Below the pieces are notes generated by a model. It did not search any database. It was not told the DNA's origin and saw only the letters and a list, made by a program, of their open reading frames with translations. The translations under genes were made by a program, and so were the position numbers. This document shows positions 2-63,900 of a stretch of DNA of 64,000 nucleotides, piece after piece; positions within the stretch are counted from its first letter, which is position 1; each line of letters starts with the position of its first letter. The stretch lies in NCBI GenBank assembly GCA_017561155.1, contig JAFZDP010000033.1:1007-65006 (forward strand), in the 5' to 3' direction. The DNA comes from Bacteroidales bacterium (GTDB lineage: Bacteria; Bacteroidota; Bacteroidia; Bacteroidales; P3).

Positions 2-1186
2 AAGCTGGAATTGTTAATTAAAAGACTAAATTTATCTGAAAGGGTAAGTCCGTTTATAAAACAAAAGGAAATAAAAGAACTTTTAGATTACTATTTTTTG
101 ACAGAAGCAGAGAGTGACAGAATGACTAATTTGGGTGTTCTGTTTATTGGAACACAATCGCAAAGAGGTAGATTAATGAATAGTCCGGTTATTCAATGTA
201 TTAAATATGATGATAAGGGAGAGAAGGTACAAAAATATTTGTGGGACGATTTTTCGATGACTCCTGAAGAAATTATAGAAGATGTTTGGAATAGAATACC
301 TGATTGGAAAGAAACAAATGAAATCAGTGAGGGACTGTTTCGTAAAGAAATTTCAGCATACGATAAGGAGGTGATACGAGAATTGGTATGTAATGCATTG
401 GTACATCGCCCATACACAATCAGTGGTGATATATTTATAAATATTCACCCTAATCGTATTGAAGTGAAAAATCCCGGAACATTGCCATTGGGTGTTACTC
501 CTGAAAATATTTTGCATAAAACTGTTAAACGAAATGAACATTTTGCCAATCTTTGTTATGCACTGATGTTGATGGAGAGAGAAGGATCGGGATATGATAA
601 AATGTATGAGATACAATTGAGTAATGGTAAGCAAATACCAAGGGTGTTAGAAAGTGAAGATTCGGTTACAGCTATTGTTGAACGTCGAATAATAAGCAAG
701 GAAGCTGTAAAAGTGATACGCGAGGCTTTGTTAATGGCAGATTTGAAGCAAAAACAAATAATTTGTTTAGGGTTAATAGTTCAATATGAAACTATATCGG
801 CGACTAATTTGATACGAATACTAAATCTTAAAAACAGAGAAGATCTTTCGCCTTGGTTAAATCCTTTATTGGAGTATGGAATTGTCGAAACTATTGGATC
901 TCATAGGGCAAAAGAATACCGAATAAATACATCTGTACTTAAACAAAGCGATTATAAAGGCACAACCTCTTTGAAAAGGGTAGAAGACTATCGTATTAAG
1001 GAATTGATAATAGAGGATTTAAAAATATATGATTGTGCTCCTCTTAAAGATATTCATCAACGAGTAGGAAAAGAGATACCTTATAAAAAGATTTTGGCAC
1101 AAATAAAATCATTGATTGCAGAAGGAATTGTGGCAGAAATTGGACACAATAGATGGGTAAAGTATCGATTATTAAGGAAAATGTGA
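2..1186 (+). CDS. Putative ATP-binding transcriptional regulator (divergent AAA / HATPase_c_4 type); 5' end lies outside the window
   Basis: The frame is open from base 2 up to the listed TTG at 11, so the window edge truncates the gene. Motifs NALVHRPY, IEVKNPG, EREGSGYDKM and a winged-helix-like C-terminus match my recollection of this family. Confidence 0.6.
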   Translation, partial: KLELLIKRLNLSERVSPFIKQKEIKELLDYYFLTEAESDRMTNLGVLFIGTQSQRGRLMNSPVIQCIKYDDKGEKVQKYLWDDFSMTPEEIIEDVWNRIPDWKETNEISEGLFRKEISAYDKEVIRELVCNALVHRPYTISGDIFINIHPNRIEVKNPGTLPLGVTPENILHKTVKRNEHFANLCYALMLMEREGSGYDKMYEIQLSNGKQIPRVLESEDSVTAIVERRIISKEAVKVIREALLMADLKQKQIICLGLIVQYETISATNLIRILNLKNREDLSPWLNPLLEYGIVETIGSHRAKEYRINTSVLKQSDYKGTTSLKRVEDYRIKELIIEDLKIYDCAPLKDIHQRVGKEIPYKKILAQIKSLIAEGIVAEIGHNRWVKYRLLRKM

Positions 1187-1395: not shown

Positions 1396-2018
1396 GGGCT
1401 TCGCTAACGCTTTGCAGACTACGAGACTACGAGTGGGGCTACGCTGCGCTTCGCTGACAACGGACAACAGACAAAGGACAACGGAGGGCTACGCTAACGC
1501 TTCGCCAGACTACGAGACTACGAGACAACTAGTCAACAAGACAACAAGTAGGGCGGTAGTCGGAACAAGGGAATTACGGATCTACGGAATTACGGAGGGC
1601 TTCGCCTGGGGATAGAAAGTAGAGAAAGTAGAGAAAGTACAGAAAGTACAGAAAGAACCTTCTATACCCTCTATACCTTCTGTACCCTCTATACCCAAAG
1701 AAATCCTTTAAACATAAAAAAGACTGTAGTCTGTTGACCGTAGTCCGTAGTCCTAGAAAAGAACTTTAGACTTATGACATTAGCCTTTCGACATTAAGTA
1801 AAGCTTCGCTGCGCTTCGCCAGAGAAACGACAAAAGCCATGAGACAAAAGAGACATTAGACTTTAAACCAAACAACTAGTAGTCTCGTAGTCCTAATAAA
1901 TACTCTCTATACTCTCTAGACTATTCTATACCCAAAGTAAACCTTTAGCCTTTTGTCATTTGCCTTTAGACATTAAACAAAAAACGACTGTAGTCCGTAG
2001 TCCATTGTCTGTAGTCCT
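1396..2018. repeat. Mosaic microsatellite block A (header + 7-9 bp unit modules; forward half to about 1655, then reverse-complement vocabulary)
   Basis: Forward half: GGGCTTCGCTAACGC..AGAC(TACGAGAC)n, (AACGGAC)n, (TACGGAAT)n, (TAGAGAAAG)n. Reverse half: (CTCTATACC)n, (CGTAGTC)n. Shares 66-100 nt identities with blocks B and C. Confidence 0.95.
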
Positions 2019-2051
2019 AAAAAAATACTTGTCTATATCGCGGAAAAGTTG

Positions 2052-2059
2052 TAATTTTG
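2052..2059 (+). promoter_or_regulatory. Bacteroidota -7 box TAATTTTG
   Basis: Matches TAnnTTTG; 37 nt upstream of the ATG at 2096. Confidence 0.6.
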
Positions 2060-2095
2060 CAAACCGAAATATTTGAAATAATTCGGTATTAATAT

Positions 2096-2713
2096 ATGTT
2101 AATGAATAAGGATTCTACAATAAAGTCAAAGATATTCAAGCGTTTGAAAGATAGTCCTGAAAACAGTGTTTTCTTTTTGAGTGACTTTTCTGAATTAGGT
2201 TCTATCGAAACAATAAGAAAAGTATTGTTTCAAGCTCGTTTGCAAGGATTGATTACAAATCTTTGCCACGGAATATATCTTAAACCGATGCTGTCGCGTT
2301 TTGGCGAAGTGCCACCTCCATTAGAAACGATAGCCGAGGCTATTGCCGAAAGAGATCATGTAGAAATAATGCCTACAGGTAGTACAGCTGCAAATATTTT
2401 GGGTCTATCGACACAAGTTCCTATGATTGTTTCATATCTTACCACCGGGTCTTCAAGAAAAATTCCAATTAAAAACAGGATTATTATATTCAAACATGCC
2501 GCCCCACGAAATTTTGCATATAAGGGGAAAACCATTCCATTGATAGTACAGGCTTTGAAAGAATTAGGTAAAGCAAATATTGATGAATCTACGTTGTCGA
2601 CTCTGTCGGCATATATAGACAAAGCGAAAGACTGCGATACATTTGCCACTGATATATTGTTGGCTCCGCAATGGATACAAGCTATTGTTAAACCAATGAT
2701 TAAAAGCTATTGA
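2096..2713 (+). CDS. AbiEi-type antitoxin / transcriptional regulator (type IV toxin-antitoxin, abortive infection)
   Basis: 205 aa. N-terminal wHTH-like region and overall similarity to AbiEi/DUF6088 proteins as I recall them. Directly followed by an AbiEii gene (stop 2711-2713, next ATG 2716). Confidence 0.7.
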   Translation: MLMNKDSTIKSKIFKRLKDSPENSVFFLSDFSELGSIETIRKVLFQARLQGLITNLCHGIYLKPMLSRFGEVPPPLETIAEAIAERDHVEIMPTGSTAANILGLSTQVPMIVSYLTTGSSRKIPIKNRIIIFKHAAPRNFAYKGKTIPLIVQALKELGKANIDESTLSTLSAYIDKAKDCDTFATDILLAPQWIQAIVKPMIKSY

Positions 2714-2715
2714 AT

Positions 2716-3735
2716 ATGAAACATTGGCAACAATATGACGCCGAAGAACAGCTTCAGTTGCTCGACATTACGAGTGGAGCTACGGGGCTTCCTCGATTGG
2801 CAATAGAAAAAGATTGGTGGGTAACAGTAGTTTTGAAAGCACTATCGTTAACACAATTTTCACATCTGATGTCGTTTAAAGGAGGTACATCGTTATCAAA
2901 AGGATGGCAATTGATAAACCGCTTTAGCGAAGATATAGACATTGCTTTGAAAAGGGAAGAGCATTTTCTTATTAAAGGTACATCTAATAACCAATTAGCA
3001 AAAGTTCGCAGAACAGCAAGACATTACATTATAAGGGAATTACCGTTGGAACTTAATTTGGCATTAGAATCGTTTGGTGTAACGAATTTTACTATAGAGC
3101 CCGAAATATCGCGAACCAAAGATGGGGTAACTAAAGAACTTCGTGCAGATACAGACCCTTCGGTTATTTTTGTAAATTACAACAGCATTGTTCCCGAGAC
3201 GTCTGAATATGTACAACCAAGAGTCAAAATAGAGATCAGTTGTCGTTCGATGGACGAACCTATAAAAGAATTGCAGTTTAGCTCGTTTATTTCAACTTCG
3301 GTGCCGGAGTCGGAAGATATGGAAGTGAAATTCAATACAGTAATTCCCACAAGAACTTTTTTGGAGAAAATATTTTTATTGCACGAAGAATTTCTTAGTG
3401 AACGACCTCGAAGTTATCGTATGTCGCGACATTTGTATGATTTGGAAAAAATAATGGATAACGATTTTGGTTTAAATGCATTGTCGGACGGACAACTTTA
3501 TATGGATATTGTGAACCACAGAAGTATATTTAACAAACTTACAAATGTAGACTATAGCAGTCACTATCCGTGCCGTATTAATTTTCTTCCTCCAACATCT
3601 GTTATAAATGAATGGGAAAATGACTATAACAAAATGAAAGAAACCTTTATTTATGACCCGAATAAGATACCTTTTGATAACCTTGTAAAGAGAATGAGAG
3701 AACTACAAGAACGTGTCAGAAAGATTAAGATTTAA
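2716..3735 (+). CDS. AbiEii/AbiGii-family nucleotidyltransferase toxin
   Basis: Motif FKGGTSLSKGW..INRFSEDIDI is typical of AbiEii nucleotidyltransferases. I prefer the ATG at 2716 to the track's TTG at 2710. Confidence 0.8.
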   Translation: MKHWQQYDAEEQLQLLDITSGATGLPRLAIEKDWWVTVVLKALSLTQFSHLMSFKGGTSLSKGWQLINRFSEDIDIALKREEHFLIKGTSNNQLAKVRRTARHYIIRELPLELNLALESFGVTNFTIEPEISRTKDGVTKELRADTDPSVIFVNYNSIVPETSEYVQPRVKIEISCRSMDEPIKELQFSSFISTSVPESEDMEVKFNTVIPTRTFLEKIFLLHEEFLSERPRSYRMSRHLYDLEKIMDNDFGLNALSDGQLYMDIVNHRSIFNKLTNVDYSSHYPCRINFLPPTSVINEWENDYNKMKETFIYDPNKIPFDNLVKRMRELQERVRKIKI

Positions 3736-4317
3736 GGCTTCGCCGGGGCTGCGACAGACAAAGGACAAAAGTCGTAAGACAAAAGAAGCTCGTTAGACTT
3801 ATGACATTAGCCTTTCGACATTAAGTAAGGCTTTGCTGGGGCTGTGCCAGACTACGAGACAACTAGTCAACAAGACAACAAGTGGAGGCTGCGCTGGGGC
3901 TGCGCCGGAAATACGGAATCACGGAATTACGGAGGGCTTCGCGACAAAGGACAAAAGACGTAAGGCAAAAGGTGAGCTTCGCTAGACTACGCAAATAACA
4001 GACAACGGACAACAGACAACGGAGGGCGGTTGCCGGATCTAGGGATTTACGGAATCACGGAATTACGGAGGCTTCGCTGGACCTACGGATCTACGGAGTC
4101 ACGGAACTACGGAAACACTTTCTGTACACTCTATACCATTCTATACTCTCTCTACCTTTCGACTTTAATCCTTAAACAAAAAACGACTGTAGTCCGTTGA
4201 CCGTAGTCTGTAGTCTTAAAAATACTCTCTATACCCAAAGAAATCCTTTAAACATAAAAAAGACTGTAGTCTGTTGACCGTAGTCCGTAGTCTATCGAAT
4301 AAAAAAAATCGTAGTCC
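3736..4317. repeat. Mosaic microsatellite block B
   Basis: Starts on the base after the AbiEii stop codon and ends on the stop codon of the convergent ATPase gene. Same module vocabulary as the other blocks. 4227-4292 is identical to 1687-1752. Confidence 0.95.
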
Positions 4318-5564
4318 TAAAGCATCCAGCGCCAACACGGCATTATTATGATTTCCTTTCCATCGGGCAATGAAATTGTTTCAGATTCTGTCAACGTCAG
4401 TATTATGCCGGAGTTTAAACCAAAAGCATCCATAGCAGTTTGCAAGCCTTTCAGTTCTCGACTGCGAGTAGGTTCGGACTCCATAGATGCCGTAACTTGT
4501 ATAACTTGTTTGACAGTATTTCTTTCTCTAACAACGAAATCACATTCAGCACCATCGTTGTAATAAAATACATTTCCACCTCTTCTCAACAATTCCACAG
4601 CTACCAAATTTTCCAACCAGCGACCAATATTTTTACTCATATTAAATCCTATTTGAGAGGCTAATGCGTTGTCGATAAAATAAATCTTCTTTGGACTACG
4701 CAACTGAACACCTACTTTGGGACTATATTTACATAGCTGAGAAATCAAATAAGTTTGCTCTATATTATCGATCCACGAAGATATAGTGTCGGAACTTGAT
4801 ATACCTATATTTTTTGCTACAGAATTGTAGGTGCATAGATTAGTAGCATTACTAGCCAAGTAGAAAAGCATTTCTCGCAATTGACGTTCCGATGAGATTT
4901 TATTTCGGACAATGACATCACGAAAAACTATATCGGAATAGATGGATTTCAGATAATTCTCACTGCCATTATTCAAATACTGAGGGAAGCCACCCTTGAC
5001 AAGATACTCTTGAAAAGATGAAGATAATAGAGCTTTGCCTTTTGTAGTAAAAAAATCTTTACGACTAAAATCGATACCAAGAAATTCGAGATATTCGGCA
5101 AAAGAGAATGGATACAACTCGTGAGTAACATGTCGTCCGGTGAGTAATGTGCCCATTTCTTTGCTTAAAAGATGAGCATTGCTACCGGTAACAAATACTT
5201 TATTGCCTGAAGAATACAGTCGGCTTACAAATCGTTCCCAGCCATCTATATTTTGAATTTCATCGAAATAGTAGGTATGCTGTTCTCCAAATTCTTCATG
5301 AAATAACTCGTCGAGCTTTTGAAAGTCTTCTACAGTAAACGACAACAACCTTTCATCATCGAAGTTTATATAATAATCCCGTTCGCTACGAGAAGTTTGT
5401 ATTTGACGTAAAAGAACCGACTTACCACAGCGACGTACACCAGTAATAACAAGAACTTCGGCACAATTTAGTAATTTCGAATCTATTTTTCGAGCAATTA
5501 TATTGTGTAATTTATATTCTTTTTGCTCGTAAATTATCTGTAAAAGAGTATCTTTCGTTATCAT
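4317..5564 (-). CDS. AAA+ ATPase with DUF4143-type C-terminal domain (COG1373-like)
   Basis: Walker A GVRRCGKS and a Walker B-like YYFDEIQ. I chose the start at the internal Met (MITKDTLL) because a TATATTTG box lies 21 nt upstream of it. Confidence 0.75.
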   Translation of the reverse strand: MITKDTLLQIIYEQKEYKLHNIIARKIDSKLLNCAEVLVITGVRRCGKSVLLRQIQTSRSERDYYINFDDERLLSFTVEDFQKLDELFHEEFGEQHTYYFDEIQNIDGWERFVSRLYSSGNKVFVTGSNAHLLSKEMGTLLTGRHVTHELYPFSFAEYLEFLGIDFSRKDFFTTKGKALLSSSFQEYLVKGGFPQYLNNGSENYLKSIYSDIVFRDVIVRNKISSERQLREMLFYLASNATNLCTYNSVAKNIGISSSDTISSWIDNIEQTYLISQLCKYSPKVGVQLRSPKKIYFIDNALASQIGFNMSKNIGRWLENLVAVELLRRGGNVFYYNDGAECDFVVRERNTVKQVIQVTASMESEPTRSRELKGLQTAMDAFGLNSGIILTLTESETISLPDGKEIIIMPCWRWML

Positions 5565-5584
5565 AATACTTGTGTTTTGTCTGG

Positions 5585-5592
5585 CAAATATA
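5585..5592 (-). promoter_or_regulatory. -7 box TATATTTG (minus strand)
   Basis: Plus strand reads CAAATATA; 21 nt upstream of the ATG at 5564. Confidence 0.55.
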
Positions 5593-5668
5593 CGAATAAT
5601 TTCCCAATGGCAGTAGGAAAATAAAAAAAAACTTCCTATTATCATTGGGAAGTTTTGTTAATAAGACG

Positions 5669-6070
5669 TGGGCTACGCTGGTGCTTCGCAGACTACGAGA
5701 CTACCAGTCAACTAGACAACGAGTGGGGCGGTAGCCGGAACAAGGGAATTACGGATCTACGGAATTACGGAGGGCTTCGCGACAAAGGACAAAAGACGTA
5801 AGGCAAAAGGTGAGCTTCGCTAGACTACGCAAATAACAGACAACGGACAACGGAGGGCGGTTGCCGGAACAAGGGATTTACGGATCTACGGAATTACGGA
5901 GGGCTTCGCCTGGGGATAGAAAGTAGAGAAAGTACAGAAAGTACAGAAAGAACCCTCTATACCTTTTATACCCTCTATACCCTCTATACCCAAAGAAATC
6001 CTTTAGACATAAAAAAGACTGTAGTCCGTTGACCGTGGTCCGTAGTCCGTAGTTCTTAAAAAATAGTCCT
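5669..6070. repeat. Mosaic microsatellite block C (cleanest exemplar)
   Basis: Six forward modules are followed by (CTCTATACC)4 and (CGTAGTC)n. 5761-5868 equals 3923-4037 minus one 7-nt unit. Confidence 0.95.
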
Positions 6071-6113
6071 AAAAAAACTTCCCTTGAGTGTAATACTTAA
6101 GGGAAGTTTTTTT
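6071..6113. terminator. Bidirectional intrinsic terminator hairpin
   Basis: Stem CTTCCCTT (6078-6085) pairs with AAGGGAAG (6099-6106). It is flanked by an A-run and a T-run and lies just downstream of the minus-strand gene ending at 6141. Confidence 0.7.
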
Positions 6114-8523: not shown

Positions 8524-10221
8524 CTATCTATCGGACTGTTGTTTATTGCTTGCTGCTTCCGATACGTTGATTATGAAGTCGGCGGTTTTTTCGTATAGGG
8601 CGTACATGCTGCTGTATACGGTGCCGGTTTGGTAGTTGTATGTTCCGGATTTTATATCTTCCAAGTGTTGGTTTCGCAGTTTGTCGCGATATTGGTTTAT
8701 CTTGTTTTCTATGTCGATGGCAGCGTCGATGTCTGCATTGTCGTATTCGCTATGTAGGTTGTCGTTCATCACTTCCAATGCCCGGCTTACCATTTGGTGG
8801 ATGTTGTCAAGATTGGCTGTCAGTGTTTCGTCGAGGGTAACTTTGTTTTCGCGTTGGTTGTTTTTCAGTATCGATATTTGGTATATTGCATCGCCTATGC
8901 TTTCCATGTTATCTATTATTCTGAGCATCGAGCTTACACGTTGCGAACCTTTGTTACTTAGTTCTCCTTCGGCTATCTTGGTCAGGAATTTGGCTATCTC
9001 TATCTCCATGTTGTCGGTTATGTCTTCGTATTTTGCTATTCTAGCCATCAGCTTTTCGTAGTCTTCGGTTTTGGCAGTGTTGTCCAGATCTTTCAGGAAT
9101 CCGAACATTCGTAGCACACGTTGCGAGAAAACCTCTATTTCTTTTTTTGCTGTCTGTATGTCAAGTTCCGACGTGTTTACAAGTGTAGAAGGGATGTAGT
9201 GAAGTCTGAAGTTTTCGCTTTCGTCGTTGTTCACTCTGATAATGAAATTTACGATTTTGATTATTTGAGGGATAAACCACACCATTACCGCTGTGTTGGT
9301 AAGATTGAACAGCGAGTGGAATATAGAAAGAGCCACAGGCATTGCAGCTGCCGATACGAAGGGCGAAAGACCTTCGGTGCTTTCGGTTATGAATGCTACC
9401 AGTTTTAGGAAAGGGTAGAACACTATCAGCATCCATATTACACCTATTACGTTGAACACCAGGTGCGAGAGAGCCGCTCTCTTGGCGGTGTTGTTGGCTA
9501 CAGTGGCAGCAAGGTTGGCAGTGATGGTGGTGCCTATGTTTTCGCCAAGCACCATGGCAGCACCCACTTCGAAACCTATCCAGCCTTGGCTGCACATAAG
9601 TAGAGTGATGGCCATGGTGGCACTACTGGACTGTACTATGAGTGTGAGTATGGTACCGATAAGTACGAAGAGCAGTATCGACCGGTAACCCATATTGGAG
9701 TATTGGGCTATAAATTCCAATATCTGTGGGTGGTTGTTGATGTCGGGTATGCTGTTTTTCATAAACTCGATACCCAAGAATAGTACCGAAAAGCCTATTA
9801 TAAATTCGCCTATCGACTTGCGTTTGCTGTGTTTTGAGAATATGAAAGGTATGGAAAAGGCCACCAATGGTATTGCCAACTGAGCCATAGAGAATTTAAG
9901 TCCTAGCAGCGATATTATCCATGCGGTGGCTGTTGTGCCGATATTGGCGCCCATGATGATGGCTATGGCACCTGCAAGCGATAGCAGACCTGCATTGACA
10001 AAGCTGACCACCATGACGGTTGTAGCACTGGAACTTTGTATTACTGTGGTGACGAATGCTCCGGTAAGGATACCATTGAATGGTTTTGAGGTCATACGAG
10101 CAAGGATATTACGCATTTTGTTTCCTGCCAATTTTTGTAAACTTTCGCTCATCAGCTTCATTCCGTAAAGGAAGATACCTAGCGAACCTAGTGTGATAAG
10201 TAGATTAATTACTACGTTCAT
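8524..10221 (-). CDS. Na/Pi cotransporter family protein with PhoU-like C-terminal domain
   Basis: N-terminus LGSLGIFLYGMKLMSESLQK, duplicated NaPi_cotrn-type membrane repeats and a soluble helical C-terminal half. Confidence 0.9.
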   Translation of the reverse strand: MNVVINLLITLGSLGIFLYGMKLMSESLQKLAGNKMRNILARMTSKPFNGILTGAFVTTVIQSSSATTVMVVSFVNAGLLSLAGAIAIIMGANIGTTATAWIISLLGLKFSMAQLAIPLVAFSIPFIFSKHSKRKSIGEFIIGFSVLFLGIEFMKNSIPDINNHPQILEFIAQYSNMGYRSILLFVLIGTILTLIVQSSSATMAITLLMCSQGWIGFEVGAAMVLGENIGTTITANLAATVANNTAKRAALSHLVFNVIGVIWMLIVFYPFLKLVAFITESTEGLSPFVSAAAMPVALSIFHSLFNLTNTAVMVWFIPQIIKIVNFIIRVNNDESENFRLHYIPSTLVNTSELDIQTAKKEIEVFSQRVLRMFGFLKDLDNTAKTEDYEKLMARIAKYEDITDNMEIEIAKFLTKIAEGELSNKGSQRVSSMLRIIDNMESIGDAIYQISILKNNQRENKVTLDETLTANLDNIHQMVSRALEVMNDNLHSEYDNADIDAAIDIENKINQYRDKLRNQHLEDIKSGTYNYQTGTVYSSMYALYEKTADFIINVSEAASNKQQSDR

Positions 10222-19995: not shown

Positions 19996-20077
19996 GTTTG
20001 CCGTTGCAATAGTATTCATTTTCTTCTAAAACACTTTTTACAGATGCTTACAACACTTTTTACTTTCTTCGGAAATG

Positions 20078-20399
20078 ATAGTATAGAAAGTGCTGTAGTT
20101 ATAGTATAGAGAGTGCTGAAATTATAGTATCGAATGTACTGAAGAGATTATAGAAAATACAGATTTACATGATAAAAAACCTGCACTTGCGATGTGAAAT
20201 ATTGGAATTTTAAATGTGATAAATAGGCTATTTTTCACATCAAAAAAGCCTATTTTTTATAATGCAAGTGGCACTTCGACACCATGCAAGTGGCTATTTC
20301 GCATTGTCTCTCCAATACTCTCGGTATTATATCTCCGGCACTTTCTGTACTATGTATACAATACTTTCGACACTATGTCGTTAGTACTTTGTAAAAAGT
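20078..20399. repeat. Inverted 4 x 23-bp arrays flanking a roughly 140-bp core, upstream of an HU-like gene
   Basis: Forward units ATAGTATAGAAAGTGCTGTAGTT occupy 20078-20169. Reverse units occupy 20308-20399; the reverse complement of unit 20331-20353 matches unit 1 at 19/23 by eye. The units contain the TATAGAAAG/TATAGAGAG core of the mosaic family. Confidence 0.85.
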
Positions 20400-20468
20400 G
20401 TTTCTGAACAAATAGAAAATTGTTTCAGAAGAAATAGAAAAGTAAAACAATACAAACCAACAATAATA

Positions 20469-33999: not shown

Positions 34000-34005
34000 G
34001 TTTTT

Positions 34006-34470
34006 GAGGGCTTCGCTGTCGCTTCGCAGACTTGTGCTTCGCTATCGCTTCGCAGACTAAGGGCAAAAGTATAGAAAGTATAGAAAGTAGAGAAGGTATA
34101 GAAAGTATAGAAAGTATAGAAAGGCTGTGAGCTACGAGTCATGAGTTATGAGCCGGCTTCGCCCTATCCGTGATTCCGTAGTTCCGTTAATCCATAATTC
34201 CGTGATTCCGTAAATCCGGCTACTGCTCTCCCTTTTGTCTTACGACTTTCGTCTTTTGACAGCGAAGCTCAATTTCCGTGATTCCGTAATTCCATAGTTC
34301 CATAATTCCGGCTACTGCCCTCCATTTTGTCTTACGACATTTGTCTTTTGTCGGCATAGCCACCGCGAAGCTACAACCGGCTGCTGCTCTCCATTTTGTC
34401 TTACGACTTTCGTCTTTTGACAGCAAAGCTCAATTTCCGTGATTCCGTAATTTCGGCGTAGCCTCAGTCT
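34006..34470. repeat. Mosaic microsatellite block D
   Basis: Two double-GCTTCGC headers and (TATAGAAAG)n in forward orientation, then reverse vocabulary (ATTCCGTA, CCGGCTAC, GTCTTACGAC, GCGAAGC). Confidence 0.95.
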
Positions 34471-34640: not shown

Positions 34641-34867
34641 TTTTTAGTCGTTCCCGGATATGGTGTAAAAGGGAGTGATATGTGTGTTTAATATTTTGAT
34701 TAATAATTTATTATCTTTTTTGATGTTGCTTGTGACACTCATCGCTAAAGCATAGGATTTGATGCTTGATAGAAGTTTTTGAATTGTTAAAAATGCCCGT
34801 GTTAAAAATTCTTTAAATTGTTAAAAAGTACTCTGTTTGTTAGTTGGATATCTTTTTGATAATAGAC

Positions 34868-35354
34868 TTTGAGTGCTGAGCAATGAGTGGGGCGGCAGCC
34901 GGAACTGCGGAATAAGGGTATAGAGAGTATGGAGAGTATAGAGAGTATAGAGAGTATAGAGGGTATAGAGGGTATAGAGGGTTTCTCTATCTTCTCTACT
35001 TTCTGTACTTTTAAAGGACAACGGACTTTGGCTACGCCAAGACTACAAGACAACTAGTCAACGAGACCTTGGCTGTGCCAGACAACAAGACAACGAGTCT
35101 ACGAGACAAGTAGTAGGGCGGTGGTTGGAATCACGGAATAAGGGTATAGAGGGTATAGAGGGTATAGAGGGTATAGAGGGTATAGAGGGTATAGAGGGTA
35201 TAGAGAGTCTCTCTACTTTCTGTACCTTTCTATACCTTTTTTGTCCTTTGCCTTTTGCCTTTCGTCGTTAGTCGGCGAAGCGACAGCGAATCCGGCTCAA
35301 AGCTCGTAGCTTGTTGCTCACAGCTAATCCGTCTGCGAAGCGATAGCGAAGTCC
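34868..35354. repeat. Mosaic microsatellite block E
   Basis: (GTATAGAGG)7 at 35144-35206 and a second 9-mer run at about 34917-34980. The block ends in reverse-orientation double-GCTTCGC headers (35273-35352). Confidence 0.95.
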
Positions 35355-44378: not shown

Positions 44379-44594
44379 ATTGCACAGTGTCGGTTATCGG
44401 TTTCTAATTGTATTATAAACAACGGAGGACGGTAGCCGACACATTGCTTTATGGCAAGCCGATTTTTAAAACCTACCTACAATCACCCCAAAATTTTAAT
44501 GATAGACTTGTTTTCTTTTTGATGTTTTTTAATAAATTTTCATACACTAAAAAACACATTCCATCGTTATGAAAAGACCTTTAAAGAGGTGTTC

Positions 44595-44683
44595 GGAGAA
44601 GATTCCAATCTTCTTTTGAGAACATTGGAGTCTTCTCCGGAGAACATTGGAGTCTTCTCCAGAGAAGATTGGAGTCTTCTCGA
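44595..44683. repeat. Four tandem 22-23 bp units, each an imperfect hairpin (GAGAACATTGGAGTCTTCTCCG)
   Basis: Units at 44595, 44618, 44640 and 44662; about 115-200 nt upstream of the HU-like gene at 44797. Confidence 0.85.
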
Positions 44684-44796
44684 AGGAAGATTACAATGCT
44701 TGAAAATCAAGCATTTATGATTTGAGAAAAAACTCCGAGAACATCACTCTTTGAAAGGTAAGTATCTTTAGTTATTAACCAATAATATTTAAGACT

Positions 44797-55095: not shown

Positions 55096-55138
55096 AAGCA
55101 AACTATGTGATACCAACGCATGGTTTGCTTTTTTTTTC
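55096..55138 (+). terminator. deaD intrinsic terminator
   Basis: Stem AAGCAAAC pairs with GTTTGCTT, followed by T8. Confidence 0.75.
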
Positions 55139-55140
55139 TT

Positions 55141-55646
55141 GAGCTTCGCTATTGCTTCGCAGACTAAGGGCAAAAGACAAAAGTCTAAAGGGTATAGAGA
55201 GTATAGAAAGTATAGAGAGTATAGAAAGTGGGTTTCGCTGTCGCTTCGCAGACTAAGGGCAAAGGGCAAAAGTCTAAAGGGTATAGAGAGTATAGAAAGT
55301 ATAGAGAGTATAGAAAGTGGGCTTCGCTGTCGCTACGCAGACTAAGGGCTAAGGGCAAAAGTCTAAAGGGTATAGAGAGTATAGAGAGTATAGAGAGTAT
55401 AGAGAGTATAGAGAGTATCGAAAGTGGGCTTCGCTGTCGCTTCGCAGGCTAAGGGCAAAAGGCAAAAGGCAAAGGACAAAAGTCTAAAGGGTATAGAAAG
55501 TATAGAAAGGCTACGAGCTGTGAGCTTTGAGCCACTTCGCCCTATCCGTGATTCCGTAGTTCCATAATTCCGTAGTTCCGTTAATCCATAATTCCGTAAT
55601 TCTATCAATCCGTAGTTCCGTAATTCCGGCTTCGCCTCCGTTGTCT
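55141..55646. repeat. Mosaic microsatellite block G with an 89-bp higher-order tandem repeat
   Basis: Units start at 55141, 55230, 55319 and 55426, giving lengths 89, 89 and 107 (89 + 2 x 9). A reverse (ATTCCGTA)-type half follows. Confidence 0.95.
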
Positions 55647-55716
55647 TTTTTTGTAATATTTTGTGGTGGGAAATGAATAAAAACAAAATAATTTCACTAA
55701 TAACAGAAAAAAACAG

Positions 55717-55767: not shown

Positions 55768-56637
55768 ATGAGTATACAAAAAGCACCAATAATAGGGATA
55801 AATAGGCATAGGTTTCTTACAGATGGAGAAGGTGTAACCACTCTTGTGGTGTTCCACGGTTGCCCATTGGATTGTAAATACTGCCTTAATCCCGAATGCA
55901 AAACCAATGCGGAAAGACATGAATCGTTTACACCCCGGCAACTATACGACAAGGTGCAGATAGACGATCTTTATTTTCGTGTTACCGGTGGAGGTGTCGT
56001 TTTTGGTGGTGGCGAGCCTTTGTTGCAAAGTCGTTTTATAGAGGAGTTTAATGATATATGTGGCGACAAATGGAGTATATATATAGAAACATCGCTTAAT
56101 GTGGATCAGTGTCATGTGGAAAGACTTGTATCGATAGCAGATAGTTGGATAATAGATATAAAAGATTGGAACAACGATATATATAGAAATTATACAGCAT
56201 GCAACAATTTTGCAGTAAAACGTAACTTGGAGTACTTGCTATCGAATGTAGATGCCGATAAAATACAGATACGGGTGCCTCTTATTCCATGCTACAATAC
56301 CATTGGCGATACCGAACATACAATAGCGGAGCTCCATAAATTAGGTATTACCGATATTGATAAATTTGAATACAAACAAGATGTTGCTTCTCTAAAAGAA
56401 AAAATACATAAGAAAAATAATCAAATAACCACACTCGACCCGGATAGTATCAATATGGGAAAGTTTAGGTGCGAGGTGCTGAAAAGTATTCGTATTCATG
56501 CTGCCGAGTGTAACAATATACCGTATACTCCACACGAATGCCCAAACAATATGTGTGCCACCGGATTTTGTCCGATATGCGACAATGAATTAAAAAAGAT
56601 AACAAACGAATATTATAAACAAATAAAAATAAAATAG
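55768..56637 (+). CDS. Radical SAM enzyme, glycyl-radical-enzyme-activase (PflA)-like core with a Cys-rich C-terminal extension
   Basis: DGEGVTTLVVFHGCPLDCKYCLNPE (CxxxCxxC) and GGGVVFGGGEPLLQ. The C-terminal roughly 60 aa carry six Cys residues (C-x12-C-x9-C-x4-C-x4-C-x2-C). Confidence 0.75.
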   Translation: MSIQKAPIIGINRHRFLTDGEGVTTLVVFHGCPLDCKYCLNPECKTNAERHESFTPRQLYDKVQIDDLYFRVTGGGVVFGGGEPLLQSRFIEEFNDICGDKWSIYIETSLNVDQCHVERLVSIADSWIIDIKDWNNDIYRNYTACNNFAVKRNLEYLLSNVDADKIQIRVPLIPCYNTIGDTEHTIAELHKLGITDIDKFEYKQDVASLKEKIHKKNNQITTLDPDSINMGKFRCEVLKSIRIHAAECNNIPYTPHECPNNMCATGFCPICDNELKKITNEYYKQIKIK

Positions 56638-56639
56638 TT

Positions 56640-56873
56640 ATGAATAAGAAATTAAAAGATTTTATTGATAATGTATCATCTCGATTTAAAGGTAAAATAA
56701 AAGATGAAGATTCCAGGTATTTTGGATGTGAAGGAGATGTAAAAGCGGATTTTAATTTCGATGATGAGGACGAAATTGAAGAAGATGACGATGTTGTTTT
56801 CTCGGATGGTATTTTGCTTCCTGATTATAATGAAAATGATATAAGTGACGAGAGGAGAACAGAAGATAGTTAG
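56640..56873 (+). CDS. Small highly acidic hypothetical protein (77 aa)
   Basis: The ATG is 2 nt after the radical SAM stop. The sequence contains DFNFDDEDEIEEDDDVVFSDG..DYNENDISDERRTEDS. Confidence 0.45.
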   Translation: MNKKLKDFIDNVSSRFKGKIKDEDSRYFGCEGDVKADFNFDDEDEIEEDDDVVFSDGILLPDYNENDISDERRTEDS

Positions 56874-57094
56874 TAATTGGTAGTTTTTACTCTATCTTTG
56901 AAAAAGTCAGCCCAATACGGATTTTCTTTGTCAAAAATTTCTTTTTGTTCTTTTGTGAGTTTATGCGGATAATCTGAAAAAAGATTAAATACTACACGTT
57001 TATCAAAGGAAAATAGAAATTCGCCTATGATATTTGGATTATCAACCCAAAATATTTTGTCTTCTTCATTTTCTTTATAGAAATTGTACTCCAT
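56870..57094 (-). CDS. Hypothetical small protein (74 aa)
   Basis: ORF with its own TATCTTTG box 87 nt upstream. Its stop overlaps the convergent acidic ORF. Confidence 0.5.
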   Translation of the reverse strand: MEYNFYKENEEDKIFWVDNPNIIGEFLFSFDKRVVFNLFSDYPHKLTKEQKEIFDKENPYWADFFKDRVKTTNY

Positions 57095-57180
57095 AGTTTA
57101 TTTTATAAATACAAAAATAGAAAGCCCGATATTGCTCTCATTATGCAAACAAGCAGCAGTATCAAGTTTTAGTTATTTTG

Positions 57181-57188
57181 CAAAGATA
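57181..57188 (-). promoter_or_regulatory. -7 box TATCTTTG (minus strand)
   Basis: Plus strand reads CAAAGATA. Confidence 0.5.
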
Positions 57189-57211
57189 CGAATAGATTTT
57201 GATTGACAAAA

Positions 57212-57454
57212 TTATATTTCTTTTCTCATGATTTCCAGTGCTTCGTCGGGAGTGCTATACCTACACGAAATGCCATTTTCGTCCTCTGTTATTATTATAA
57301 AATGAGGGTAGCCGACACAAGCATTTTCCTCGGCTTCACATGTAGCATGATACACTACACCGCCTTTGTATTCACATTCATACGTTACTTGGTCTAGTTC
57401 GTTATTTACGGCAAATGTAAGCGCCATTAAATATGTTTCTTTTGTCGCTTTCAT
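57212..57454 (-). CDS. Hypothetical small Cys-containing protein (80 aa)
   Basis: An ORF. A decayed copy of its 3' end lies about 420 bp away, which implies it is or was a real gene. Confidence 0.5.
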   Translation of the reverse strand: MKATKETYLMALTFAVNNELDQVTYECEYKGGVVYHATCEAEENACVGYPHFIIITEDENGISCRYSTPDEALEIMRKEI

Positions 57455-57458
57455 GATG

Positions 57459-57466
57459 CAAAGTTA
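57459..57466 (-). promoter_or_regulatory. -7 box TAACTTTG (minus strand), only 5 nt from the ATG (possible leaderless mRNA)
   Basis: Plus strand reads CAAAGTTA, immediately upstream of the ATG at 57454. Confidence 0.4.
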
Positions 57467-57534
57467 CAAACTTTTTCCGACATAAAGATATATTTCTAAA
57501 ATAATATTTGCAATGGTTGTGTAGTAAGAGTGGA

Positions 57535-57591
57535 ATAAAAAAACCTCTTAATTTGGTTCTCGGCACTACAAGCCGAGGCAACATTAAAAGG
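57535..57591 (-). terminator. Strand-specific intrinsic terminator (minus strand)
   Basis: Minus-strand RNA reads CCUUUUAAU-GUUG-CCUCGGC-UUGUAGU-GCCGAG-AACCAA-AUUAAGAGG-U7. The U-G wobble works only on the minus strand. Confidence 0.6.
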
Positions 57592-57626
57592 CTTTTGTGA
57601 CTGCAAAATTACAAATAAATTTCGAG

Positions 57627-57678
57627 TTGACAAAATTATTTATCTTTTCTCATGATTTACAGTGTATACCTACACGAA
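57627..57678 (-). pseudogene. Relic of the 3' end of a paralogue of the 57212-57454 gene
   Basis: Aligns to 57203-57270 with a 15-nt deletion between GCACT direct repeats and a G-to-T change that creates TAA. Confidence 0.75.
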
Positions 57679-57911
57679 AAAAACTTTTGTAGTTTTCTGA
57701 AACAACAAGTCGATAATAATCTAATATACCGGTAATAGACAATAAAAAAAGCTTTTATAAGTTATTCTTGAAAATATTTAGTATGTTTGATTTTATAGCA
57801 GGATTGATAGAAGATTTTTTGAATTCCAAAACAGGATGTGGTTGTTTTGTTATTTTTTTGTTTTGGTTTTTTATATCTTCATTGTTAATGGCTATTTTTT
57901 AATATCTAAAT

Positions 57912-58215
57912 TATGCTTCGCTGTCGCTCAGTAGACTAAGGGCAAAAGACAAAAGGCAAAGGGCAAAAGTCTAAAGGGTATAGAAAGTATAGAAAGGCTA
58001 CGAGCTGTGAGCTTTGAGCCACTTCGCCCTATCCGTGATTCCGTAGTTCCATAATTTCGTGATTTCGTAAATCCGTAGTTCCGTTAATCCATAATTCCGT
58101 GATTCCGTAAATCCGTAAATCCGTAGTTCCATAATTCCGGCTACCGCCCTTCCTTTTGTCTTACGACATTTGTCTTTTGTCCGGCGTAGCACCGCGAAGC
58201 CATGGTCTGTTGTCC
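57912..58215. repeat. Mosaic microsatellite block H
   Basis: 57964-58056 is identical (93/93 by eye) to 55477-55569 of block G, in the same orientation. Confidence 0.95.
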
Positions 58216-58216
58216 A

Positions 58217-58257
58217 TAAAAAAACTAGAGTCAACGGAAATATCCATCGACTCTAGT
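58217..58257 (-). terminator. Terminator of the HU-like gene
   Basis: Stem ACTAGAGTC pairs with GACTCTAGT. The A-run on the plus strand gives a T-run on the minus strand. Confidence 0.7.
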
Positions 58258-58307: not shown

Positions 58308-58925
58308 CTATCCTTCAAAACCGCCGCCACCTTGGTTGGTGTTGCCACTATCACCATTGTCCGGAGATGTGTTGGAATTGTTGTCATCGTCATCGTCGTC
58401 GTCCTCATTGTCGTCGGTGATGTCGATTATCTCAGATTCGCCACCTTTGATTTTGGAATAAAGTTTTTCAGTACGGATAGGATTGCCATCGGCATCTCGC
58501 TCCAATACACGTTCGCCTACTATTTCGTAAACGCCCTCCAATTCGCAATCAATTTTGGCCAAATCTTCTTTCAAATCGGTTGAAGGAAGAAAACGAATTT
58601 TGAAATCCACCAGTTGGCGTATTCCTGCTGCTTCCAAATTGTCGGTGGCAGTGCTTTCGCAAGTAATGCGGAATGTACCTAAGTTAGGAAATTCCACACT
58701 ATGACCATTCAACAAAAAATTGCGGATGGATTGCGTAAGTGCATGCATGGATGCAGACACATAGGCAGGTGGTACCATCGAGTTTTGGGTGCAATACTCC
58801 AAGATGTCTTTGCTAGACATAGTGGTGTAGCGTACAGGGCGTAAAACAAAACCCTTAGAAATTTTTTGGCTTCCGCCAACATTGTAAATGTTCTGCTCTT
58901 TGGCAGTCAAAAGAATTTTTCCCAT
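58308..58925 (-). CDS. HU-family (HU_HIG-like) DNA-binding protein with poly-Asp / Gly tail ending GGFEG
   Basis: DILEYCTQNSMVPPAYVSASMHALTQSIRNFLLNGHSVEFPNLGTFRIT is an HU-like core; the tail is ..DDNEDDDDDDDNNSNTSPDNGDSGNTNQGGGGFEG. Confidence 0.7.
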   Translation of the reverse strand: MGKILLTAKEQNIYNVGGSQKISKGFVLRPVRYTTMSSKDILEYCTQNSMVPPAYVSASMHALTQSIRNFLLNGHSVEFPNLGTFRITCESTATDNLEAAGIRQLVDFKIRFLPSTDLKEDLAKIDCELEGVYEIVGERVLERDADGNPIRTEKLYSKIKGGESEIIDITDDNEDDDDDDDNNSNTSPDNGDSGNTNQGGGGFEG

Positions 58926-59533: not shown

Positions 59534-59810
59534 CTAATATTTCGTCACATACCTAAATTTAAGATATTAACAAGTGGTGATAAAAAAGGGAAAAAACTTG
59601 ATTGTGAATTATATATATGCTAATAACATCCTTTTTTTTTTTCTATATTTTTCTTGTTTTGAGTAGATTGAGATAAAAATGATTTCTTGTTTTTTTGTAG
59701 TTTTTTGATTTGAAGTTGCAAACATAGATAATATTGTTTTTTAGCGCAAATTGAATGTTAATTTCATGGTTAATAACTGTTAATAAAGTAGCGTATATAA
59801 CCCTCAAAAA

Positions 59811-59893
59811 AAATGGGTACCCATTTGTCGAAAAATGGGTACTATATTTGGGAAAAATGGGTACCCATTTCGTATGTAAATGGGTACCCATTT
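59811..59893. promoter_or_regulatory. Phased array of a perfect 16-bp palindrome AAATGGGTACCCATTT (3 exact copies + 1 half-degenerate)
   Basis: Copies start at 59811, 59833 (degenerate right half), 59855 and 59878, so spacing is 22, 22 and 23 bp. The array lies in a 740-bp region with no credible ORF. Confidence 0.85.
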
Positions 59894-60145
59894 TTGGATT
59901 ATATAGTACTATCCGGAACAAAATATAGTGGGGATATGAAAAATAATAGATTATTTGAAATTTAAATTCTTGAATATTAGAGTGTTTTGATTTTTTTGAA
60001 AAATGTTTTTTTTATGGTCGATAGTGCCGGTGTTTTATTTTTGTGAGCCAAATATATGGATAAAATGCATAGTTGTAAATGTTAAAATACATACTTGTGC
60101 AAATGTATTATTATGCAGTTGCAATATCCGTCTTTTTGTAAAGAG

Positions 60146-60545
60146 ATGTATAGAAAGTAGAGAACGGTTGTGAGGCATGATCCGGTTTCGCTTTGCTACG
60201 CCAATACTAAAAGCAAAGGTCGTAAGACAAAAGGAGGGCGGTAGCCGAAGCTACGGAATTACGGAATAGAGGGTATAGAGAGTATAGAGAGTATAGAGAG
60301 TATAGAAAGTATAGAGAGTATAGAGAGTATAGAGAGTATAGAGAGTCTCTCTACTTTCTGTACCTTTTTGGGGACAACGGACTACGGACAACAGACAACA
60401 GTCGGGCGGTAGCCGGCTCAAGGCTCACAGCTCGTAGCTCATAGCTACTCCGTCTGCGAAGCGTAAGCGAAGCACCAGCGGCAGCCACTTGTAGTCTCGT
60501 AGTCTTGTAGACTAGTAGTCTCGTAGACTCGTAGTCGGCGAAGTA
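60146..60545. repeat. Mosaic microsatellite block I
   Basis: (GTATAGAGA)8 at 60273-60344, the shared junction GTATAGAGAGTCTCTCTACTTTCTGTACC, then reverse vocabulary (GCGAAGC, GTAGTCTCGTAGTC). Confidence 0.95.
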
Positions 60546-60717
60546 CACCAAAAATATATAATACTATAATTAAATGCAGTAATAACTCACATATAACCAG
60601 CGGTGGAGTTGTATAAAGAAATGTGAAAATATTTCTGATAATCAAAATAATATGGAAGATAAATTGAAAAATGGTAAAAAAATCTTTCTTTTTTGCTTGT
60701 ATATGAAAAAAAAGTAG

Positions 60718-60912: not shown

Positions 60913-63900
60913 ATGAGAAAAATACTTGGATTAGACCTTGGCACCAATAGTATTGGATGGGCAGTGATAGAGGCAGAAGATAACGAACTTGTAGAAATAT
61001 TGGGAATGGGAAGTAGAATAATTCCGTTGACTACAGACGAATCGAACGAATTTTCTACCGGTAATGCTATTTCTAAAAACCAAAAACGAACAGAGAAACG
61101 TACTACTCGTAAGGGATATGACAGGTATCAACAGCGACGAATAAATTTGACTCTTAAACTTAGAGAGTTGAATATGTTGCCCGATGAGCAATTGATAAAA
61201 TTGCCGGTATTAGAACTTTGGCAACTAAGAGCAAATGCGGCTACTAATGGTTGCAAACTGAGTTTGGCAGAGATAGGCAGAGTGCTTTATCATCTAAACC
61301 AAAAACGAGGATATAAGCATGCCAAAGCCGACGAAAACTCTGATAAAAAACAACGTGAATACGTTGCCAACATAAACAATAGATATACTCATATACAAGA
61401 ATTGGGCAAAACTATTGGTCAATACTTTTTTGATAATCTGAAAGATAACGAAGTGACAACCGAAAAGGGAAAATTCTATACATATCGTATAAAAGATCAA
61501 GTGTTTCCACGCAAGGCATACGAGGCTGAGTACGACCAAATAATGGAATGTCAAAAAGAATTTTATCCCGATATACTAACCGATGAGGTTATAGACGAAA
61601 TACGCAACGAAATAATATACTATCAACGCAAACTAAAATCGTGCAAACACCTTGTTTCGCTATGCGAATTCGAGAAGCGAAAATACATAAACAAAGAGGG
61701 AAAAGAAGTGTATGATGGGCCAAAGGTGGCTCCAAAGTCGTCGCCACTATTCCAAGTGTGTAAGATATGGGAAAGTGTAAATAACTTAACCTTAAAGAAT
61801 AGACGAAACGATGAACTATATATATCGGCAGAGCAACGCAAAGCAATGTTCGACTTTTTGAATGAAAACGAAAAGATGACACTGACCGATATGTATAAAA
61901 TACTAAACATTACCAAAGCCGACGGTTGGTGGGGTGGAAAAGCTATTGGCAAAGGTTTGCAAGGTAATACTACAAAGATGCAACTTCGTAAAGCTCTTTC
62001 AAATATTGAAGGTGCTGATGAATTGTTGAAGTTTGATTTGACTACGATAAATATCGATAAAGTTAATACTGAAACAGGAGAAATATTGAAAGTAGTAAGT
62101 CCCGATTTTGAAAAAGAACCTTTATATAAACTTTGGCATACCATATATTCTATTCAAGATAAAGAGGAGCTAAGAAATGTCCTTGCAAAGAACTTTAATA
62201 TTACCGACGAAGAAACTATAAACGCACTATTTGCAATAGATTTTGTAAAAGCCGGTTTTGGCAATAAGTCGTCGAAGTTTATGCGTAGAATATTACCGTA
62301 TCTTCAAGAGGGCGAAAAATATAGCAAGGCTTGCGAATATGTAGGTGTAAACCACTCTAATAGCATAACAACGGCCGAAAACGAAGCCCGTACATTACTT
62401 GCCAAACTTCCTCAAATTCAGAAAAACGAATTGCGTCAACCGGTGGTTGAAAAGATACTTAACCAAATGGTTAATGTAGTAAATGCTATTATAGATAAAT
62501 ATGGAACAATAGACGAAATAAGGGTAGAGCTTGCCAGAGAGTTGAAGCAAAGCAAAGATGAGCGTAATGAAACTGACAAGCGAATGAGAAATAGTCAAAA
62601 AGAAAATGAAAATATTGCAAAAAGAATAGAAGAATATGGCATTCGTTCCTCTCGTAATAAAATACAAAAATATAAGATGTGGGTCGAAGCCGAAGAGAAA
62701 TGTTTCTACTGTGGGCAACCTGTTAATGTTACTGAATTTTTAAAAGGAGATAATATAGAAATAGAACACATTATACCAAAGTCGTTGTATTTTGATGATA
62801 GTTTTTCTAACAAAGTATGTTCGTGCAAAAAATGTAACCAAGAGAAAAACAATCGCACTGCATACGACTATATGAAAACCAAAGGCGAAGAAGCTTTTAA
62901 TGAATATGTGAAACGAGTAGAACGATACTATGAAGCCAAGAAAATATCGAAAACCAAAAGAGAGCGACTACTTACCCCTACGGATAAAATACCAAACGAT
63001 TTTATAGATAGACAATTAAGAGAAAGTCAATATATAGCCCGCAAATCGGCAGAGATGTTGCGATTGGTATGTCGCAATGTTTGGACCACAAGTGGTAGTA
63101 TTACCGACTTTTTGAGACACAACTGGGGATACGATGAAATACTACACTCTGTAAACCTTGAACGCTATCAGCTTGGAGGACTTACCGAAATGGTAGAGTA
63201 TGAACACAAAGGCCAGAAACATACCGAAGAAAGAATAAAAGAATGGACAAAACGTCTGGACCACAGACATCATGCTATAGATGCTTTGGTAGTGGCTTGT
63301 ACCAGACAAAGCTACATTCAACGCCTAAACAACTTGAACACCGAAAGAGATGTAATGTTCGAAGAAGTTGAAAAACAAGGAGCTGAATGGAAAGAAAAAC
63401 TATCGTTGCTTAACAAGTGGGTTTCTATTCAACCTCACTTCCCGGTAGATGTGGTGAGGAACAAGGTGGAAGAAATACTTGTATCGTTCAAGTCCGGAAA
63501 GAAGGTGACAACTTCAGGCAGGCGTGTAGTATACAAACATGGTAAAAAGGTTGTGATGCAATCGGATATACTTGTGCCTCGTGGTAGCCTAAGCGAAGAA
63601 AGTGTTTATGGCAAAATAAAGACAATAGAAGAAAAGAAACCTATTAAATATATATTCGAACATCCGGATTTGATTTTCAAACCATATATAAAGAAGTTGG
63701 TAGAAGATAGACTGAAGATGTTTGATGGCGATAGCAAAAAGGCGATAGCTTCGTTGAAAAAAGAGCCTATTTATCTGAGAGAAGATAAATCTGCAGTATT
63801 GGAATATGCCACATGCTACAAAGAAGAATACGTAATTAAGTATCCTTTGAATTCGTTGAAGGCCAAAGATACTGAATATATAACTGATAGTAAGATAAAA

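Follow-up and report, generated by a model that had tools for sequence, protein, structure and literature searches.

In a 64-kb window of contig JAFZDP010000033.1, from an uncultured Bacteroidales of the ruminant gut (sample labels "gut metagenome" and "bovine gut metagenome"), accessory units alternate with long non-coding repeat blocks, which are called Z, A, B, and C here. The blocks belong to a repeat family which is hypervariable between strains; the cassettes between them are polymorphic, breakpoints lie within the blocks, and near-identical cassettes are found in divergent genomic backgrounds. We consider it probable that Z, A, B, and C are lineage-specific, dispersed intergenic mosaic repeats supplying recombination homology for the exchange of accessory units. 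All coordinates refer to the window, i.e., the whole stretch of DNA analyzed; contigs of public assemblies are designated L0xx and public sequencing runs carry X-numbers. Run evidence consists of depth and alignment of Logan contigs, and relatives of the locus were retrieved by exact-protein look-ups, which returned no record for prfA, nor for the ATPase version with the shorter start. The order in the window strain is Z, AlbA_2/HATPase gene, A, AbiE, B, ATPase, C, and a gene of 195 aa, with the following features:

2..1186, plus strand: cassette 1, 3' part of the AlbA_2 (Schlafen-like) and HATPase_c_4 gene (Pfam PF13749)
1396..2030, plus strand: block A, a mosaic of GCTNCGC headers and microsatellite modules of 7, 8, and 9 nt
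1561..1605, plus strand: 45-nt exact direct repeat common to blocks A and Z, with the presence/absence junction of the AlbA_2/HATPase gene inside
1687..1752 and 4227..4292, plus strand: 66-nt exact direct repeat, copies around AbiE
2029..2064, plus strand: putative promoter module TTGTCTATATCGCGGAAAAGTTGTAATTTTGCAAAC (TTG ... TAnnTTTG; Bacteroidota -33/-7 consensus)
2096..2713, plus strand: AbiEi (DUF6088) antitoxin/regulator gene (Pfam 6e-46; PADLOC AbiEi 1.5e-61)
2716..3735, plus strand: AbiEii nucleotidyltransferase toxin gene (Pfam 3.7e-29; PADLOC AbiEii 3e-90)
3736..4316, plus strand: block B, reaching exactly from the stop codon of AbiEii to the stop codon of the convergent ATPase
3921..4013 and 5759..5851, plus strand: 93-nt exact direct repeat, copies around the ATPase
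4317..5564, minus strand: AAA_14 and DUF4143 ATPase (Pfam; PADLOC PDC-S01 5.6e-114)
5598..5654, unstranded: imperfect inverted repeat beside a T run, between block C and the ATPase start (repeat finder, sequence reading)
5660..6080, plus strand: block C
6071..6113, unstranded: terminator-like hairpin 3' of the 195-aa gene

A preliminary description of this DNA had proposed an array of cassettes bracketed by repeat blocks, and its gene layout (AbiE pair, convergent ATPase, block B from stop to stop, terminator) is confirmed by Pfam, PADLOC, and the coordinates. AbiEi (DUF6088-type) and AbiEii (PF08843) are adjacent and only 2 nt apart, as expected for a type IV toxin-antitoxin/abortive infection system of the AbiE type, which we therefore predict here. 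The ATPase aligns with 394 of the 412 profile positions of PADLOC candidate system PDC-S01, and its role in defence is accordingly given as a candidate annotation; a longer gene-caller version of the gene begins at 5645. The HATPase_c_4 regulator, in contrast, had been described as truncated, but it is only cut by the window edge: the gene is intact in the same contig upstream of the window, encoding 547 aa with PF04326 and PF13749 (L002). It is preceded by the fourth block, Z, which is likewise located outside the window. Since the A-B-C arrangement was found again at 99-100% identity in the independent assemblies L002, L003, L013, L016, and L018, it is no assembly artefact.

According to Tandem Repeats Finder and a repeat finder, blocks A, B, and C consist of short units in tandem, with GC-rich headers as joints. 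The units are GACTACG, GACAACG, GGAATTAC, AGAAAGTAC, CTCTATACC, and GTAGTCC, and G+C alternates within the blocks between approx. 0.6 in headers and 0.25-0.4 in microsatellites. The long direct identities noticed before were verified to the nucleotide: 1687-1752 equals 4227-4292 at 66/66 positions, 3923-4037 and 5761-5868 differ solely by one extra 7-nt unit, and 1561-1658 differs from 5865-5953 by one 9-nt unit and one substitution. Further exact direct repeats connect block A with block C (57 nt, maximal, 1574-1630 and 5878-5934) and block Z with A and C (45 and 55 nt). All four blocks have the same polarity, regardless of the orientation of the genes next to them. No terminal inverted repeats were found in blocks A, B, and C, and their single-strand DNA folds are not notably better than those of shuffled sequences (z = -2.3, -1.05, and -1.5, respectively). 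A search of Rfam in the window returned only a tRNA, leaving the blocks unmatched and giving no CRISPR match.

The comparison of relatives which the preliminary description had called for showed that the units are separately present or absent, with edges marked by blocks. In L018, a polysaccharide locus and a DUF6016 gene are followed by Z, the AlbA_2/HATPase gene, A, and AbiE. In L001, which shares this end of the polysaccharide locus, the AlbA_2/HATPase gene is missing: a single block leads to AbiE, a short block separates AbiE from the ATPase, and a further block lies between the ATPase and mfd. The length difference between both contigs is approx. 2.3 kb, and their two alignments overlap inside a repeat. 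The junction lies within a common GGATCTACGGAATTACGGA 8-mer array: on reading the sequences, GGATCTACGGAATTACGGAGGGCTTCGC is found on both sides of the AlbA_2/HATPase gene in L018, and one hybrid copy remains in L001. In the window strain, this gene is flanked by a 45-nt exact version of the repeat. Identity between L018 and L001 is 86.8% on the polysaccharide-locus side of the junction; on the AbiE side, the remainder of block A (the 3' part, 1561-2030, which accompanies AbiE in L001) reaches 97.6%, AbiEi 98.4%, and AbiEii 99.6%, and the promoter region is identical throughout (100%). Runs X5 and X9 contain AbiE and the ATPase at depths of 20-38 and have depth 0 over the AlbA_2/HATPase gene. 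Empty-site alleles also exist. In L010 and L014/L015, the conserved 195-aa gene and its terminator are followed by 760-870 nt of blocks and a different polysaccharide locus (with Bac_transf and DegT genes, or a ManC-like gene), with zero cassettes. Finally, in L010, L012, L014, L016, and L017, the similarity to the window breaks off at 6003-6042, within the 40-80 nt that close block C.

Concerning the borders of this variable region, hairpins resembling the one at 6071-6113 were seen by eye (unaligned) also 3' of the last polysaccharide-locus gene in L018, L001, and L014. Judged in the same way, similar hairpins with the loop GAGTGTAATACTT or GAGTGCAATACTT delimit the whole variable region at either end and have the same orientation (window, 6071-6113; L018, approx. 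9598-9640; L014, approx. 2675-2715 and 3415-3460), and both are present in the empty-site allele L014.

The block vocabulary is not restricted to this island. It recurs at five further loci of the window, which are listed here together with the unit between two of them:

34000..34470 and 34860..35350, unstranded: blocks D and E, between prfA and a BatA-family gene
55130..55650, unstranded: block G, between a DEAD-box helicase gene and a radical SAM gene
55768..57454, unstranded: radical SAM gene and small genes, bracketed by blocks G and H
57905..58225, unstranded: block H
60140..60550, unstranded: block I, 5' of cas9

Repeated 11-mers make up 4.8% of the window and are located in 7 of 41 intergenic gaps and in one unrelated palindrome array. 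The GCTNCGC header occurs 37 times in 3.85 kb of blocks vs. 13 times in the remaining 60 kb, which corresponds to an approximately 44-fold higher density. Six of the seven block-bearing gaps adjoin a variable or defence-related unit, a count which covers the window only and uses classes set post hoc. Four long gaps of the window (418-561 nt) are without blocks, and none were found in approx. 22 kb of core genes of a related Bacteroidales (same 90%-identity BipA cluster). A 12-mer "block" match 3' of BipA in L052-L056 was read and dismissed as chance.

Scanning genome contigs with a block 20-mer yielded one related genome (L032) among chance matches and did not return the genome of the window itself; the same kind of scan in metagenomes yielded four related contigs, and scans of viral contigs gave no matches. 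In five independent block-bearing contigs, single genes or gene pairs lie between blocks spaced 1-2.5 kb apart, namely HEPN/MNT pairs, AAA_21 with DUF4276, a 23S_rRNA_IVP protein, and sugar-nucleotide genes. Ordinary genes such as those for DHQ synthase, Zip, and an amino-acid kinase in L032 likewise have short block fragments between them. Among the individual arrangements, a nucleotidyltransferase/HEPN pair bracketed by blocks is located beside an M20 peptidase gene in L032 (685-1425) and L039 (1771-2511), the peptidase of L039 being split into open reading frames (ORFs) of 260 and 99 aa. L033 (3323-5764) carries a 23S_rRNA_IVP gene and an AAA_21 and DUF4276 pair, each delimited by blocks, 3' of dTDP-rhamnose genes. 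In the literature, no description of this repeat family in Bacteroidales was found.

Other repeats of the window do not belong to the family. A palindrome array with a period of 22 nt (AAAAATGGGTACCCATTT) at 59809-59895 lies in a long stretch devoid of ORFs and has no relation to the block vocabulary, and tandem arrays with periods of 23, 22, and 44 nt are located 5' of HU-like genes (20072-20443 and 44593-44697).

The radical SAM unit provides a second case of a block-bracketed segment that varies. Run X9 is 98% identical to the window in its core (115 differences in 6547 nt); its depth is 0 over 55779-57680, covering the radical SAM unit, and one contig joins 55378 to 57915. Besides the radical SAM gene, the unit comprises a coupled acidic ORF of 77 aa and two small minus-strand genes. 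Past block H, the alleles of the HU-HIG gene (58308-58925) and of cas9 in X9 are only approx. 90-92% identical, compared to 98% in the core; the cas9 ORF (60913-63999), with RuvC_III, HNH, and Cas9 alpha-helical lobe domains, continues beyond the window end.

Run X5 extends the comparison to a more distant genome. Contigs of depth 33-36 cover the helicase and the RecN region, which are 79-81% identical to the window (246 differences in 1322 nt and 184 in 869 nt). In contigs of depth 29-38, identity is approx. 99% for AbiE, 95% for the ATPase, and 97% for the radical SAM gene. The AbiE contig of X5 matches L004 in length and alignment pattern, and L004 is 100% identical to L001. These sequence comparisons indicate that block-flanked units are shared between species with approx. 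20% divergence in core genes. The blocks themselves belong to the host lineage rather than to AbiE, because AbiE pairs of 81% and 69% identity in other organisms have no blocks, and a 97%-identical allele (L042) has blocks with a different module set.

Among related strains, the blocks change quickly. Block copies vary in module content; a block of L018 has one additional 9-nt unit, run X5 and L001 each have a 9-nt insertion in a block, block C of L016 contains an additional run of approx. 130 nt of A/B-type modules, and at block G the L023 spacer is shorter by 89 nt. In L001, approx. 87 nt at block B remain unaligned vs. approx. 468 nt in the window, and the spacer is made from Z-type modules. 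Judging from these sequences, both unit slippage and whole-module exchange happen in blocks, although internal block lengths may be misjudged in short-read assemblies.

This variability bears on the question of whether the blocks are mainly regulatory spacers, i.e., terminators, promoters, or insulating structures which resemble each other due to selection for that role. One and the same putative promoter module of 36 nt (TTG ... TAATTTTG) precedes both AbiEi and the AlbA_2/HATPase gene (L002, 484-519), paired 9-mer arrays can fold into a hairpin of 20 pairs with a T-rich tail behind it, and block B is the sole sequence between two convergent genes. On the other hand, the hairpin of block A is oriented to the wrong strand for its upstream gene, the size and content of blocks diverge among strains with the same genes as just described for B and G, and Rfam gave no match. 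We therefore regard a mainly regulatory role as doubtful. A contribution of the 2029-2064 module to transcription is presumed by us from the Bacteroidota -33/-7 consensus, and the module is putative in this respect. A variant with a 6-nt change is found in L042, 5' of the 97%-identical AbiE allele. Motifs of the TAnnTTTG type, again consensus matches, precede both AbiEi and the ATPase, and thus the cassettes do not look promoterless. The contigs of one RNA-labelled run include the promoter region and, therefore, this run may contain DNA.

We propose the following explanation of how mosaic repeats could serve the exchange of accessory units. Unit numbers in the blocks would shift through replication slippage, and whole modules would be shuffled and homogenized among loci by recombination or gene conversion, which would yield the perfect direct repeats of 45-93 nt. 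The same vocabulary stands on both sides of presumably independently transcribed units (AlbA_2/HATPase_c_4, AbiEi/AbiEii, PDC-S01 ATPase, radical SAM). As this vocabulary is common to related species, the blocks would provide homology that is portable. If two blocks of one chromosome underwent homologous recombination, the intervening unit would be deleted or duplicated; if chromosomal blocks recombined with incoming DNA, a unit would be inserted or replaced. The outcome would be a defence island which is built like a cassette array, varies among strains, and adjoins the end of a variable polysaccharide locus, assembled with no dedicated integrase. That the blocks cause the exchange, and that homologous recombination is the pathway, is what we infer.

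Several points weigh against this explanation. Association is no proof of causation, and blocks may pile up in permissive, newly acquired, or fast-recombining DNA. Only one presence/absence junction is located at the nucleotide level, the others being contig depth or ends of similarity, and Logan contigs demonstrate presence, not absence. The contigs of X5 were assigned to one genome by equal depth only, and the classes in the table of window gaps were fixed after the data had been seen. Among the Logan contigs, no deletion junctions were detectable in the population of the window strain. Run X1 has a uniform depth of 54-65 over the cassettes, and the joints within blocks, whose sides measure just 20-41 nt, most likely stem from other copies of the repeats. 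Further, empty sites retain their 760-870 nt of blocks, and at the prfA/BatA-family locus, with its two large blocks, both flanks are kept in four other strains with no segment missing. The description of the locus as a cassette array flanked by blocks thus stands insofar as cassettes vary and breakpoints lie in blocks; it does not stand as a feature of the island alone, in view of the blocks at the prfA/BatA-family locus.

These points lead to a serious rival, a merely passive association. Here, the blocks would be neutral or selfish microsatellite-mosaic DNA, expanding where selection for compactness is weak (ends of transcription units, newly acquired DNA, polysaccharide and defence islands), and the cassettes would move by other means. 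The blocks without cassette variation at prfA/BatA, the blocks alone at empty sites, and the fragments between ordinary genes in L032 all fit such a view, as does the quick change of blocks by slippage, which happens anyway. However, the sole junction known at the nucleotide level lies inside a perfect repeat common to both flanking blocks, and identity jumps at the same point from 86.8% to at least 97.6%. In addition, the four long gaps of the window and the core genes of the related Bacteroidales mentioned above are free of blocks. We therefore consider passive association possible but rather unlikely, and the supply of recombination homology by the blocks the probable explanation.

A further alternative is that another part of the genome encodes a dedicated recombinase or single-strand DNA transposase which recognizes a feature of the blocks such as GCGNAGC mini-hairpins and moves the cassettes in the manner of integron attC sites or of repetitive extragenic palindromes (REP) and their REP-associated tyrosine transposases (RAYT). 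The approximately 44-fold density of GCTNCGC in blocks is in line with this, as is the uniform polarity of Z, A, B, and C whatever the gene orientation. GCGNAGC, the complement of the header motif, equals the consensus published for DNA mini-hairpins of extraordinary stability (PMC13037366), a match that we regard as a lead, not as a finding. A site-specific recombinase has likewise been proposed for the neisserial intergenic mosaic element (NIME) arrays of Neisseria (PMC1797815). Nevertheless, no integrase or transposase domain was detected among the window ORFs scanned against Pfam (not all ORFs), in agreement with the preliminary description, and none is given in the precomputed Pfam lists of the 21-kb L001 locus; the lists for neighbouring contig parts contain no integrase or recombinase domain. 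The ends of the cassettes are unconserved and show no target duplication, the junction lies in a microsatellite and not at a header, the folds of the blocks are weak, and the scans of viral contigs gave no matches. Such a dedicated system is improbable in our opinion. The same low expectation applies to its most specific form, in which the blocks would be the substrate of a cassette-shuffling system of ruminant-gut Bacteroidales, with a dedicated single-strand recombinase, transposase, or primase-like enzyme, encoded elsewhere, binding or cutting the mini-hairpins that one strand of the headers forms; if true, block-cassette arrays would be a functional counterpart of integrons for defence genes.

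If, instead, the blocks promote exchange by providing homology, single defence and surface-polysaccharide genes could be shuffled within and between species in a recombinase-free manner. This would extend the mechanism proposed for NIME arrays and minimal mobile elements beyond Neisseria and shed light on the assembly of defence islands in gut Bacteroidales. A practical consequence concerns short-read assemblies, which the blocks interrupt precisely at the edges of cassettes. A large number of the closest AbiEii homologs are found on contigs of only 1.4-2.4 kb, approximately the size of a cassette, which fits assemblies breaking in the flanking repeats, and three inspected contigs (L002, L024, L042) terminate in or beside blocks. 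Metagenome-assembled genomes of these organisms will therefore probably lack or misplace accessory genes.

Finally, the blocks were compared with known repeat systems. The locus resembles an integron in having small gene units with repeated non-coding separators and a strain-variable content, and an integron-like logic had been suggested for it. This was not borne out. No intI and no integrase or recombinase domain was detected in the window ORFs scanned against Pfam, blocks A, B, and C have no conserved palindromic ends and no attC-like fold (see the z values above), and the junction lies in a microsatellite. Moreover, orientation is mixed, AbiE and the ATPase being convergent, and the cassettes do not look promoterless, as putative TAnnTTTG motifs are located 5' of AbiEi and the ATPase. 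As neither an integrase nor an attC-like structure nor a dRS3 site was found, the term "integron-like" is unsupported, and due to the weak single-strand folds an attC-like or REP-like reading was dropped. Miniature inverted-repeat transposable elements were rejected as well, since A, B, and C have no terminal inverted repeats and their copies differ in modules. The same holds for CRISPR arrays, as the 7-9-mers are arranged head-to-tail without spacers and no Rfam CRISPR match was obtained.

The bacterial interspersed mosaic elements (BIME) and REP sequences of enterobacteria are dispersed intergenic mosaics of a few short motifs, often located between convergent genes or at operon ends. The blocks are likewise dispersed intergenic mosaics of short motifs; however, REP units are imperfect palindromes mobilized by RAYT, whereas the block modules are direct microsatellites which fold weakly. 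Short tandemly repeated repetitive (STRR) heptamers of heterocystous cyanobacteria consist of tandem 7-nt units in many dispersed intergenic copies. These are single-motif arrays; in the blocks, by contrast, several unit families occur together with GC-rich headers, and there is a link to cassette variation.

The closest analogue is the NIME arrays of Neisseria together with minimal mobile elements. The blocks are not NIME proper, as dRS3 (ATTCCCN8GGGAAT, at most one mismatch) has 0 matches in the 64 kb. They also differ in their units, which are microsatellites of 7-9 nt as opposed to RS elements of 50-150 nt and dRS3 inverted repeats of 20 bp, and in their host, as Bacteroidota are another phylum than that of Neisseria; as of 2007, NIME arrays had not been seen outside Neisseria (PMC1797815). 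In behaviour, nevertheless, the arrays of our locus are NIME-like: they lie beside variable genes, a junction is located in the 8-mer array, similarity ends in block C in five lineages, and the radical SAM unit between blocks G and H is missing in X9. In Neisseria, the end points of allele replacements lie in or near the arrays, which have been proposed to favour exchange with incoming DNA (PMC1797815), as we propose for the blocks. In both systems, many short repeat families make up long intergenic arrays in which high- and low-GC segments alternate; the arrays are located beside variable genes and have recombination end points in or near them, and between conserved flanks, syntenic sites are taken by alternative small units such as restriction or defence genes (PMC1797815).

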